DNA of 64,000 nucleotides. Source: an uncultured Alphaproteobacteria bacterium (GTDB lineage: Bacteria; Pseudomonadota; Alphaproteobacteria; SHVP01). The position numbers and the translations under genes were made by a program. The notes under the pieces are model-generated. The model ran no database searches, was not told the origin of the DNA, and saw only the letters and a program-made list of their open reading frames with translations. The stretch's first letter is position 1. Every line of letters starts with the position of its first letter. Shown here in pieces: positions 3,936-25,209 of this stretch. The stretch lies in the NCBI GenBank assembly GCA_964611585.1, contig CAZTAK010000001.1:11132-75131 (forward strand). The letters run 5' to 3'.

Positions 3936-4370
3936 ATGCCGAACCCCTTCGATTACATGCAATTTATCAGCACCGATCAAGGCCGCGCCAAAGAATTCTA
4001 TTCGTCGTTGTTCGACTGGAGGACCGAAGACACTCCGATCGGAAATGACATGGTGCAGACCGTTATCCGCCAGCCCGACGGACCGTGGGGCGGGATCATG
4101 CCGTCAACCAATCCCAACGCGCCGTCGATGTGGCACGTCTATGTGCAGGTCGTGAACATGGACGAGACGCTGTTGAAAATAGTGCAACTGGGGGGCCAGA
4201 TTATCGTTCCCAAGACGCCGGTGGCAGGATCCGGATATATCGCCTTCATCCAGGACCCGACCGGTGCAATGCTTGGCGTGACCCAGCGCGACGAGATCGC
4301 AATCCATACCGCCAACCAACTGCTCGGCGCGTCGGACGCCGCCGCGCGCCCGCCACCCGGCAGCGACTAA
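3936..4370 (+). CDS. VOC/glyoxalase family protein
   Basis: An RBS (GGGAGGAGCGA) precedes ATG 3936. The product MPNPFDYMQFISTDQGRAKEFYSSLFDWRTED..WHVYVQVVNMDETL..GAMLGVTQ is typical of a small glyoxalase-fold protein. Confidence 0.6.
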   Translation: MPNPFDYMQFISTDQGRAKEFYSSLFDWRTEDTPIGNDMVQTVIRQPDGPWGGIMPSTNPNAPSMWHVYVQVVNMDETLLKIVQLGGQIIVPKTPVAGSGYIAFIQDPTGAMLGVTQRDEIAIHTANQLLGASDAAARPPPGSD

Positions 4371-4401
4371 CCGGAACGCGCTCGCAGCGTAAGGCGGCCC
4401 C

Positions 4402-5079
4402 TCAAAACGCCGGTTTGAAAAGACCGATTGCGGTATTCGCCACCACGATCGCCCAGAACGCCCAAATAACGGGTTTTGACCTGTCGATCGTGCCCTTGAT
4501 AATGGCCTCGACTTCGGGACTCGATCCCTCGCTCAAAAGGCGCGCGAATGCCGGACCGAACGGTGTCAGCATTTTGTTGACGGCGATCAGACCGGCGAAC
4601 GTGAATCCGTAAAGAAGCACTTTGAGCGCAAGCCAGGGTTCGGAAAATGGCTTGCCCGCCACGAACGAGCCGACCGCCGCCGCCAACACGACGACCAGCA
4701 GTACCCAGTTTATCGCCGAATCGAGACCATGCAGTTTCTTTCCCCAGTCGGGCGCCGTGGGACGGTGGATATTCCAGACCAGAAACAGCCACGCCGCCGC
4801 AACCACCCACACCAGGATCAGCCAACCCCCCTCGACCGGCGACAACCCGGTGCGCGCGGCCAGCGTCATGCCGGTCGGCAGCACCAGCACCATCGACAGG
4901 CGCGGAAATATATCAACTCCCTGCATGACGCGCGCCAGGACGGCGCGGGTCTCGGGCGAATACTCGGTGCGCACGAATAACTTCGCCGAATAGTAGGCGC
5001 CCATGTCGCCGCCGAGCCAGAACGCCATCACCAGAACGTGGATAAAGATCCAGAACGTGGTCCAGTCCCAAAAATCCAT
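4402..5079 (-). CDS. integral membrane protein of unknown function (about 5 predicted TM helices)
   Basis: 225-aa ORF with multiple long hydrophobic segments (FWIFIHVLVMAFWLGG, WLILVWVVAAAWLFLVW, VLLVVVLAAAVGSFVAG). Confidence 0.5.
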   Translation of the reverse strand: MDFWDWTTFWIFIHVLVMAFWLGGDMGAYYSAKLFVRTEYSPETRAVLARVMQGVDIFPRLSMVLVLPTGMTLAARTGLSPVEGGWLILVWVVAAAWLFLVWNIHRPTAPDWGKKLHGLDSAINWVLLVVVLAAAVGSFVAGKPFSEPWLALKVLLYGFTFAGLIAVNKMLTPFGPAFARLLSEGSSPEVEAIIKGTIDRSKPVIWAFWAIVVANTAIGLFKPAF

Positions 5080-5266
5080 GCCGCCCCTCCCGCACCGCTT
5101 TAGCCCCCGCCACAGAACCTAGCGCAGGACCCTCGGGCGGCGCAAACTTGGCGGAGGCCGATGCGTCCCTGACTTTCGCGCCACGGCGCCGCCGCGATTG
5201 CCATTGACGCCCATGCGTGCACCCGCGCACAGTGCGCAACGTGCAAGTCAACGTCGAAAAACCGGA

Positions 5267-22187: not shown

Positions 22188-22538
22188 TTGCAACCCGCGC
22201 GCCCTCTACGAACCGGCGGACCGCCCGGCGGGTTTTCGGTCCGCACCTGCACCTCCGGAGCGGAGGCGCTGACGGCGCTTGATGAATTCAAGCCCGACCT
22301 GGTTCTGCTCGACGTCATGATGCCCGGGATGGACGGCCCGGCGACCCTGCGCGCCATCCACGATATCAAAGGGTACGCCGACCTCCCGGTCGTCTTCTTG
22401 ACGGCGAAATTCCGGCCGCACGAGATCGGGCACTACGTCGATCTCGGCGCCATCGACGTGATCGCCAAACCGATCGACCCCCTGGACCTGCCGGCGCAAC
22501 TACAGGCGATTTGGACGCGCTATCATGCAAACGCCTGA
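22188..22538 (+). CDS. response-regulator receiver domain protein lacking the N-terminal beta1/alpha1 (acidic-pocket DD) region; TTG start
   Basis: It retains the phospho-acceptor region (LVLLDVMMPGMDG), T/K positions (VVFLTAK) and the C-terminal AKPIDPLDL. No upstream frame supplies the missing N-terminal residues. Confidence 0.5.
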   Translation: MQPARPLRTGGPPGGFSVRTCTSGAEALTALDEFKPDLVLLDVMMPGMDGPATLRAIHDIKGYADLPVVFLTAKFRPHEIGHYVDLGAIDVIAKPIDPLDLPAQLQAIWTRYHANA

Positions 22539-22872
22539 AGCCCGCGCCGAACTCTCCGAAGCGCTTGCGCGCCTCAACAAGAAATTTTCCGAATCGCTGC
22601 CGAAACGGATTTTGGCGCTTGAAAACGACCTCGCGGAATCGCGGCGCACCGGCTATGCCGCCGAATCGTTAGGGAAACTCTACCGTGCCGCCCACAGCCT
22701 TGCCGGGGCGGCAGGAACCTTCGGACGACCCCAACTCAGTGCGGTTGCGCAGGTGCTGGCGGAATATCTGAACCGGCACGCCGATGGTGGCGCCGAGTTC
22801 AGGAGCGCCGAGGCGGATCAAATCGATGCCCTGACGGCGAGCGTCATCAAGGTCGCCAACGCCGACCGCTAG
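22525..22872 (+). CDS. Hpt (histidine phosphotransfer) domain protein
   Basis: The HxxxG motif AHSLAGAAGTFG is present. The gene overlaps the upstream receiver gene end by 14 nt. Confidence 0.6.
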   Translation: MQTPEARAELSEALARLNKKFSESLPKRILALENDLAESRRTGYAAESLGKLYRAAHSLAGAAGTFGRPQLSAVAQVLAEYLNRHADGGAEFRSAEADQIDALTASVIKVANADR

Positions 22873-23597: not shown

Positions 23598-23983
23598 GCC
23601 TGGTCCTCCATTACGGAACCGAACAGCGCCGGCCCGTCTAAAACTGGTTCGCGTATTATATCGTCTGCGGAACCACCGGCGAAGCCGCTAAGACGGCTCG
23701 CGGGTGCGACAAATCGTGGCGGGGCGGGGCAGCGGCTATCGGCCAGCGCCGGACTTGAACGAGTTCAGGGCGTCGGCGGCAGACCCTTGCGGCCAGCGCC
23801 GATTCGCGGTGCGGATGGCGCCGGTGTCCGGAATCCGGCAACCGCACGGTTTGCTCTAGGTCGTGGACTCACAAACAACGCAAGGCATTGAAACGACTTG
23901 TTTCTTCGCCAGCCACAGTTTGTTCCAAACAGGTCAGTAACCCTCTGATCTGTTTTGGTTTTCTGGACCAATGGGTACGTGAC

Positions 23984-24532
23984 CTAATTTGTCCGACTGA
24001 ACTTTTCGATCGCCAGTTCCAGCGCCTCGATCAGTTCGGCGCCCGTCGTGCCGCCGTCGCCCTCGATCCGCTCGCGGATCACGACGTTCATCGTGTCGAT
24101 GTGCGCCTTGACGATTTCGACATGGTCGTCGGTGGTTCCCGCACTGCGCCCGGTAAACTGGTGCAGCGACTTGGCGAACGTTGTAATCAGCGGATACCCG
24201 AAAGTACCGCCCTGCCCGCGCATGTCGTGGGCGATCTCGTTGATCTTGCGATAGGGCCGGTAGCGCTCCTTTTCGGGCGCAGACTGCGCCACCTTGAGGG
24301 CGGCGACGAGTTGATTCACCGAACCGCTGACCCATTCGGGATAGCCTTCCGAGAACTTGGAGATTTCGGCCATCGCCTCTTCCAGGGTTTCGCTGGCAAA
24401 GCCCAGGCTGCCGCCGGCAACGCCGCTGCCTGCCTTGTCCTTGAGCTTGTTGCGCAGCCGGAAATACCGCACCTTGGCCTTTTTCTTGGCTCGCATGCCA
24501 GGTGCGGTCGGGCGCCTGTTTTCGGAGGCCAT
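23984..24532 (-). CDS. Hpt-like domain protein with a basic N-terminal region
   Basis: The motif IAHDMRGQGGTFGYPLITTFA fits the Hpt HxxKG..G pattern. The start is 3 nt downstream of the (readthrough) receiver gene stop. Confidence 0.45.
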   Translation of the reverse strand: MASENRRPTAPGMRAKKKAKVRYFRLRNKLKDKAGSGVAGGSLGFASETLEEAMAEISKFSEGYPEWVSGSVNQLVAALKVAQSAPEKERYRPYRKINEIAHDMRGQGGTFGYPLITTFAKSLHQFTGRSAGTTDDHVEIVKAHIDTMNVVIRERIEGDGGTTGAELIEALELAIEKFSRTN

Positions 24533-24535
24533 CGG

Positions 24536-25093
24536 TCAGAAATTCCCGTCGTCGTAAATGACTTCCGCTTCCTTGTCGGTGATGATGCGGCGCTCGCCTT
24601 TGCTGGTCTCGGCACGGCGGCGCCGCCGGTCCGGACCAAAATATACCGGTGTCAGCACGTACTGACGCGGCCGTTCGATCAACTGGCCAAGTATCCGGGT
24701 CAAACTCTGGATCTAATAGGGCTTGCCAAGAACTTCGGTGGCGCCGAGATCGCGCGCCTCGCGCACCTTTTCCATATCGGCGTGGCCGGTGACGAGGATG
24801 AAGGGCATGAACTTGTCGGGAGAGTCCTTGTGCCGCCGCAGCCACTTCAACAGCATAATGCCGTCGACGGGCGACATCTCCCAGTTCGACATGATGAAAT
24901 CCACGCTGCTGATTCCAGCCTTGCGTGGATCATCTTGCATGAGCTTGAGAAGTTCGATCGCCTCGCCGCCGTCTCCGGCAATTACGACGTTTCCGCTACC
25001 GAGGCGCAACAATATCGAACGCAACAGGTTGCGCATGCACGAATTGTCGTCGACAACGAGAACCGTAAACAGGCTCAGGTTGTAACCATCCAT
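24536..25093 (-). CDS. CheY-like response-regulator receiver; reading frame interrupted by an in-frame TAG at 24713-24715
   Basis: The N-terminal 126 aa form a canonical REC (LVVDDNSCMR, the acceptor Asp in FIMSNWEMSPVDG, FILVTGH, GKPY). The frame continues after the TAG as IQSLTRILGQLIERP (alpha5) for 58 codons to TGA 24536-24538. Confidence 0.65.
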
Positions 25094-25209
25094 CTACAGT
25101 TCAATCCCTTCCCCATCGCGCCCCCAATTGTGGCGTAGGAGAAACGAAGGCTAACATTTTGTTTTCGGCGTGAACAGGCTCGGCGGTCTCGTTGCAGTTG
25201 AATTCGGGT

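Follow-up and report, generated by a model that had tools for sequence, protein, structure and literature searches.

A probable recent nonsense mutation, still polymorphic, in a Cle-like receiver gene of an uncultured alphaproteobacterium

When the reading frame of a bacterial gene continues in good order beyond an in-frame TAG, is that codon decoded, or has the gene been cut short? The question is raised by a CheY-like receiver (REC) gene on the minus strand of the window, that is, the whole 64-kb stretch of uncultured alphaproteobacterial DNA analysed here, to which all positions refer. The sequence-only reading of this locus held that the gene reads through its TAG into a longer form that sits at operon spacing from a downstream Hpt-like gene. 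The account favoured below, with a probability of about 0.8, is that the TAG is a recent single-base nonsense mutation, polymorphic in the population, in a Cle-type CheY-like gene.

The receiver gene and the frame beyond its stop

The gene opens with an ATG at 25093..25091 (minus strand, as for all features below unless marked otherwise), behind a likely ribosome-binding site, GGGGAAGGGA (25105..25114), proposed from its sequence context. Codons 1-126 (24716..25093) comprise beta1 to beta5, as judged by Pfam, the CheY alignment, AF2 secondary structure and residue spectra, and end ...ATEVLGKPY (K124-P125-Y126), after which codon 127 is the TAG (24713..24715). The Pfam profile PF00072 scores 62.2 bits on the 126-aa form and 64.8 bits on the long form, against a cutoff of 30.2, and the match crosses the stop to residue 133, position 108 of the 111 in the profile. 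In the alignment with E. coli CheY the TAG falls at Thr112, and KPYxIQSLTRILGQLIER pairs with KPFTAATLEEKLNKIFEK of CheY. Sequence, profile match and alignment agree with the earlier placement of an in-frame TAG directly after the KPY of the receiver.

Helix alpha5 is encoded beyond the stop, by codons 128-141 (24671..24712), which align with CheY 113-126; AF2, modelling the full-length allele with a mean pLDDT of 82.6, places the helix at residues 128-140, and residue 127 is its N-cap. The peptide after the TAG had been described as alpha5 plus a tail, and the modelled helix, together with the conservation of the tail in homologues, upholds that description. In receiver domains alpha5 packs on the beta-sheet core and covers one face of the central sheet. 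The product of the 126-aa frame has no alpha5, leaving the (beta-alpha)5 fold incomplete, whereas the fold is complete in the ancestral long form.

The acidic pocket (D15/D16), T102 and K124 are all present in the window receiver. The phospho-acceptor aspartate (D57 of CheY) is replaced by Asn70 (24886..24884), and the 65 family members compared comprise 45 with Asn, 19 with Asp and 1 with Ala at this site. Arg114, invariant among homologues, lies inside the alpha4 helix of the AF2 model (residues 107-115).

The frame after the TAG, IQSLTRILGQLIERPRQYVLTPVYFGPDRRRRRAETSKGERRIITDKEAEVIYDDGNF, runs for 58 codons to a TGA (24538..24536), which is followed by ccg and then by the ATG of the Hpt gene at 24532; the 3-nt gap noted earlier is thus as described. 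An open frame of this length is within chance: base composition would leave 58 codons stop-free with P = 0.20, and of the window's other coding-like ORFs 38% continue for 58 codons or more beyond their own stops without meeting another. What sets the tail beyond chance is its codon content, namely homology and coding-like GC, rather than the open frame alone. GC at the three codon positions is 0.62/0.43/0.72 after the TAG, a coding-like pattern that resembles the flanking genes. An antisense ORF of 416 aa (23888-25138, plus strand) covers the entire REC/Hpt region; its GC3 is 0.58 against 0.75-0.80 in real genes, and it is therefore regarded as a spurious high-GC shadow ORF.

With the read-through translation as query, a protein search retrieved 184 homologues, nearly all of 182-185 aa. 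Subsets of 25 and of 65 of them, when aligned, have Ser, Thr or Ala where the window has its TAG, and at 80 orthologous loci taken from GTDB species representatives codon 127 specifies Ser 43 times, Thr 35 times and Ala twice, with a stop in no case. Tail columns G153, P154, D155, R156, R157, R158 and R169 are invariant among the 65 homologues, and R143 is likewise invariant in the alignments of 25 and 65. The most conserved motif of the whole family, YFGPDRRR, lies in the tail, which is the best-conserved part of these proteins: mean column identity is 0.71 over residues 142-169, against 0.68 in the REC core. Against the orthologue at L009, which is 79% identical, dN/dS is 0.12 in the tail and 0.07 in the core, and the tail of the window is 100% identical to the tails of full-length conspecific proteins. 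On this comparative sequence evidence the long form is the ancestral gene. The sequence-only reading had proposed an alignment of orthologous REC-Hpt operons and had named orthologues ending at the same place, or downstream codons devoid of conservation and codon bias, as the findings that would tell against it: none of the 80 loci terminates at the TAG site, and the 58 codons are both conserved and codon-biased.

The in-frame stops that were flagged at two loci (L027, L041) are alignment overruns beyond the natural stop. At another locus (L068:4001-4444, Iodidimonas nitroreducens Q-1) alignment of the orthologue begins only at residue 31 and meets an in-frame stop almost at once; the gene of this isolate genome may have been disrupted independently at its N-terminus or may carry a frameshift.

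A Cle-like tail and an Hpt partner

The conserved part of the tail is an Arg-rich region of Cle type (codons 142-173, 24575..24670), delimited by a PDB sequence match, published motifs and the invariant columns. Its elements are R143, YFGPDRRR (codons 151-158, 24620..24643), E167-R168-R169 and D173, and it is followed by a variable C-terminal region of codons 174-185 with the ancestral TGA (24536..24574). When the tail alone was searched against the PDB, the sole match was 6SFT, a peptide of Caulobacter CleD that binds c-di-GMP; the alignment covers 32 residues at E=0.0041 and pairs RPRQYVLTPVYFGPDRRRRRAETSKGERRIIT of the window tail with KPREWVEAVAYVGPDRRRFNSADYKGPRKRKA. The Cle family consists of CheY-like proteins with a C-terminal Arg-rich region bearing [Y/F]xGP[D/E][R/K]R (Nesper et al. 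2017, PMC5677366), and c-di-GMP binding has been reduced to DRR plus [R/K]RxxD (Hee et al. 2020, PMC7382256). The family motif is present here as YFGPDRR at residues 151-157 of the long form, invariant in the 65 homologues and, in this window, downstream of the TAG. In a second copy of the motif E167-R168-R169 is conserved, R169 being invariant, and the aromatic residue and the Pro are absent (SKGERR). The Asp that follows the RR stands at +4 in the window protein (RRIITD) and at +3 in some relatives (RRIMD). NCBIfam holds no model specific for either the REC-tail or the Hpt protein.

Because of YFGPDRR at 151-157, RR at 168-169, the invariant R114, Asn70 and the 6SFT match, the gene is filed by its sequence as Cle-like, and c-di-GMP binding by its full-length product is predicted; like Cle proteins, that product may also act on the flagellar switch FliM. 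The likeness to Caulobacter CleD extends to the overall plan of a single receiver and a short C-terminal Arg-rich region, with a conserved Arg before it and, after it, a further pair of Arg residues and an acidic one. DRR lies at 155-157 here and at 154-156 in CleD, RR 168-169 corresponds to K168-R169, and the alpha4 Arg is R114 here and R113 in CleD, an equivalence drawn by residue numbering, not from a direct REC alignment. Both proteins have a non-canonical residue at the phospho-acceptor position, Asn70 here and Glu70 in CleD, and the Cle family is itself alphaproteobacterial. Unlike in Cle proteins, the tandem second motif copy is degenerate, with the acidic residue at +4 after RR instead of +3, there is tight coupling of the gene to an Hpt protein, with fusion in some lineages, and the tail in this window is severed by a stop codon. 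The term 'Hpt' occurs 0 times in the Cle paper (PMC5677366).

The partner gene (23984..24532) encodes a 182-aa CheA-P1-like Hpt protein with its His102 codon at 24229..24227. The window protein scores 17.8 bits with the Hpt profile PF01627 (E=0.0039), under the cutoff of 24.6, while a match at E<=0.01 is obtained for 21 of the 26 family members, the best at 7.6e-6. Its His motif, AH102DMRGQGGTFGY, follows the family pattern AH[DE][ML][KR]GQGGTFGY, in which H102 and G106-Q107-G108-G109-T110-F111-G112-Y113 are invariant across 26 sequences, and a profile of the family matches CheA P1 and Hpt proteins in the PDB. The AF2 model is a helical bundle (helices 48-179, with pLDDT of about 90 over residues 70-180) whose top Foldseek matches are all CheA P1, with probabilities of 0.99-1.0 and TM(target) of 0.57-0.65, at E-values of only 0.04-0.2; the structural matches include the CheA3-P1/CheY6 complex. 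The protein thus resembles CheA P1 in an AHxxKGxxGTFG-type His motif and a predicted helical bundle, and departs from CheA P1 and Hpt domains in its sub-threshold Pfam score and in an N-terminal extension, some 45 residues long, that is basic, conserved and by prediction disordered. Within that extension the segment KVRYFRLRNKLKDKAG (residues 19-36, 24425-24478) is nearly invariant at R22, R25, N28, L30, K31 and K33 and is disordered in the AF2 model (pLDDT <50); it may be a binding motif.

Of the 80 orthologous loci, 78 have an Hpt homologue downstream of REC; the other neighbours are not conserved. The junction between the two genes is mostly an 8-nt overlap, or 3 nt in the closest orthologues, and in at least 10 loci from Pelagibius, Magnetospira and other Rhodospirillales the receiver, Arg-rich tail and Hpt domain form a single ORF of about 350-400 aa (L037, L039, L066, L067, L069, L074, L077, L079, L083 and L087, at about 4001-5200 in each). 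This retention, the tight junction and the fusions identify the two genes, by comparative sequence, as functional partners in a conserved two-gene module whose tight spacing is inherited. The earlier proposals that the long form is the real gene and that the spacing belongs to an operon built on it are both sustained.

The fused forms retain Asp at the acceptor position, unlike the Asn70 of the window protein, whose Hpt partner adjoins a receiver that cannot be phosphorylated. Caulobacter HmrX, a stand-alone CheA-P1-like Hpt protein in a c-di-GMP-linked motility and attachment pathway (PMC11481889), is similar to the partner in being CheA-P1-like, a comparison made by description only. The coupling or fusion of REC-tail proteins with a CheA-P1-like Hpt protein, found in hundreds of alphaproteobacterial genomes, is the more useful by-product of the analysis and suggests that c-di-GMP sensing may be wired to a phosphorelay through this module.

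TAG and TCG alleles in one population

The TAG is not a fixed property of the gene in its own species. Conspecific contigs carry TCG (Ser) at codon 127 of an otherwise identical or near-identical gene (L007 and 15 more), the gene of L007 differing from that of the window at 3 of 558 nt. Since the conspecific gene is otherwise identical, the TAG corresponds to one C-to-A change, at 24714 (G-to-T on the plus strand). TAG itself recurs in seven contigs (L001-L006 and L008) from ENA, NCBI and JGI records, and the contigs with TAG include one of 42.7 kb from a separate WGS record. Altogether about 34 contigs divide into some 11 with TAG and 23 with TCG; those with TCG come largely from the same metagenome sample series as those with TAG, and no sample identifier is common to the two lists. 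A metagenome pattern scan added one of these loci, L008, and exact-protein look-ups were far more informative.

At the protein level a 90%-identity cluster contains two truncated and five full-length variants. The truncated ones are P0121, the window sequence, and P0126, which has S92; the full-length ones are P0125 (the window protein with Ser127), P0124 (the S92 variant with Ser127), P0001, P0123 and P0127. The exact full-length counterparts, P0125 and P0124, were traced to some 20 contigs from this sample series.

The population is micro-diverse, with a divergence of 0.1-0.4%. In a variant table of 24 sequences (23 fetched contigs and the window) TAG is perfectly linked with 22134T and 23342A, the other SNPs being shuffled, a pattern consistent with one recent origin of TAG in a sub-lineage. 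The 177-nt tail after the stop contains no SNP in any contig of either allele; about 0.5 were expected, so the comparison has no power and the intact tail says nothing on selection. For the genes nearby, pN/pS counts are 5N:2S in REC and Hpt together against 5N:8S in the oxidoreductase, counts too small to bear an interpretation.

All four combinations of TAG or TCG with P92 or S92 exist, with the two sites (24714 and 24820) just 106 bp apart, and this shuffling contrasts with the perfect linkage of TAG to SNPs 1.4 and 2.6 kb off. The four haplotypes could have arisen by recombination, by recurrent mutation or through mosaic metagenome assembly.

Consequences of the TAG and competing accounts

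If the TAG is a young nonsense mutation, events at the locus can be pictured as follows. The ancestral module consisted of a Cle-type receiver with an Asn acceptor and an Arg-rich tail, translationally coupled to the CheA-P1-like Hpt gene, until a C-to-A transversion in the sub-lineage of the window turned Ser127 from TCG into TAG. Ribosomes should terminate there, TAG being a normal terminator in this genome, and release a 126-aa stub that ends directly after beta5. This stub, deprived of alpha5 and of the whole ligand-binding tail, on which Cle proteins depend for c-di-GMP binding, would be expected to be unstable and not to bind c-di-GMP, and because of these losses the TAG allele is most likely null or strongly hypomorphic. 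The interval separating the REC and Hpt genes yielded no promoter or terminator when scanned, and upstream of the Hpt start the only ribosome-binding site is a GGGA, weak and distant. With about 177 nt left untranslated before that start, coupling would be lost, and Hpt translation is probably reduced, given this untranslated stretch and the poor GGGA. The intactness of the downstream frame would then reflect the youth of the mutation, not selection for read-through.

Such an allele fits what is familiar from segregating nonsense alleles and young pseudogenes: it is a single-base step from a sense codon, an intact allele coexists with it, essential parts are lost and there is no further decay. 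It differs from them in its fairly high frequency, about one-third of the contigs, and in its presence on two protein backgrounds. Against this reading, TAG is found in about 11 of 34 contigs, from several samples and at least three data sources, and so is not a rare allele; nor would a mutation of strongly deleterious effect usually be expected with both P92 and S92, although recombination or mosaic metagenome assembly can place TAG on both backgrounds. The allele has also accumulated no secondary lesions downstream.

The claim that the gene reads through its TAG found no support: TCG alleles coexist with it, a stop occurs in none of the 80 orthologues, TAG is a frequent terminator and the window contains no suppressor tRNA. 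Like cases of programmed read-through or suppression, the locus has a conserved, functional-looking extension beyond an in-frame stop; in contrast to such cases, its stop is conserved in no relative, coexists with sense alleles that are otherwise identical, lacks a dedicated signal and is a TAG, which serves as a normal stop. RNA structure was considered as a signal and set aside as uninformative, the local fold near the stop being unremarkable (z = -2.1) and the sequence the same in TCG alleles; that identity of the flanking sequence means that no read-through signal can have evolved.

A leakier version of the same idea is unlikely, and of the alternatives it fares best. Near-cognate decoding of UAG would insert Gln, Tyr, Lys or Trp at position 127 and give a little full-length protein, so that a low-expression allele could persist through residual function. 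The N-cap position of alpha5 does tolerate Ser, Thr and Ala, the allele is at intermediate frequency, its downstream frame is intact, and a UAG followed by A is generally considered a weaker termination context. Basal read-through in bacteria, however, usually stays far below a few percent, the window commonly uses TAG as a terminator, and neither the RNA fold (z = -2.1) nor any other specific feature marks this stop for decoding.

It is somewhat less plausible still that the TAG allele is a functional variant maintained, on more than one background and at an intermediate frequency, for its effect on c-di-GMP signalling, through a low dose of read-through product or through a re-initiated 55-aa peptide; were it so, the polymorphism would be a natural on/off or dose switch between motile and attached lifestyles. 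The peptide route by itself, in which the gene has become a functional split gene, is purely hypothetical and quite improbable. It would have ribosomes re-initiate at an in-frame TTG (24701..24703, a re-initiation codon by conjecture) to make a free Arg-rich c-di-GMP-binding peptide from an ORF at 24536..24703 and so restore coupling to Hpt. That TTG lies 9 nt, or three codons, past the stop; yet no convincing Shine-Dalgarno sequence precedes it, it is simply the codon of the conserved Leu131 of alpha5, and no natural split occurs here among the homologues listed or in the 80 orthologous loci.

That the true base is C and the TAG a propagated sequencing or assembly error is highly improbable. 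Metagenome assemblies do hold artefacts: the split gene for a 2-oxoacid:ferredoxin oxidoreductase alpha subunit at L097:1011-1134, taken up as a candidate second nonsense case, was rejected when it proved to be divided by a scaffold N-gap and foreign sequence. The same TAG substitution, by comparison, is present in at least eight contigs from different samples in ENA, NCBI and JGI, including the 42.7-kb contig; it is perfectly linked with two other SNPs and is no homopolymer indel.

Least probable, and very unlikely, is recoding of the TAG as pyrrolysine or, by a dedicated suppressor tRNA, as Ser, which has nothing beyond the intact downstream frame in its favour and is opposed by the use of TAG to end about 17 of the 54 coding-like ORFs in the window (roughly 30%, so that the codon is not reassigned), by a 64-kb window with no tRNA gene, suppressor or other, by the ordinary Ser, Thr or Ala codons of orthologues and conspecifics with no stop in any relative, and by the want of a signal. 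No Pyl system is known from Alphaproteobacteria.

With the nonsense mutation as the preferred explanation, the locus is best annotated as a Cle-type CheY-like gene disrupted by a nonsense mutation, not as a 126-aa CheY and not as a case of recoding. Its biological value is modest: a clean young loss-of-function allele, as it appears to be, segregating beside the intact form within a population of uncultured alphaproteobacteria. The change away from TCG is derived and polymorphic, is linked to its two neighbouring variants and takes alpha5 and the Arg-rich region out of the product, while the family to which that product is assigned was read from its sequence.

A further likeness to loci with segregating nonsense alleles is a second disruptive variant in a neighbouring signalling gene. 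Some 2.5 kb away, a second receiver gene, REC2 (22188..22538, plus strand), belongs to a second REC-Hpt pair (22188-22872). Relative to L001-L003 and L099, REC2 has suffered a 196-bp deletion between 8-bp direct repeats, CCGGCGGG, with its junction at 22225-22232 on the plus strand (compare L001:6439-6642). The deletion takes the first 34 codons, including the ILFVEDEPD acidic pocket, together with the upstream region. Since this deletion is polymorphic too, disruptive variants segregate among the signalling genes here, in keeping with the nonsense reading, and with the TAG allele it points to an ongoing turnover of such genes; all four combinations of the deletion with TAG and TCG were found.
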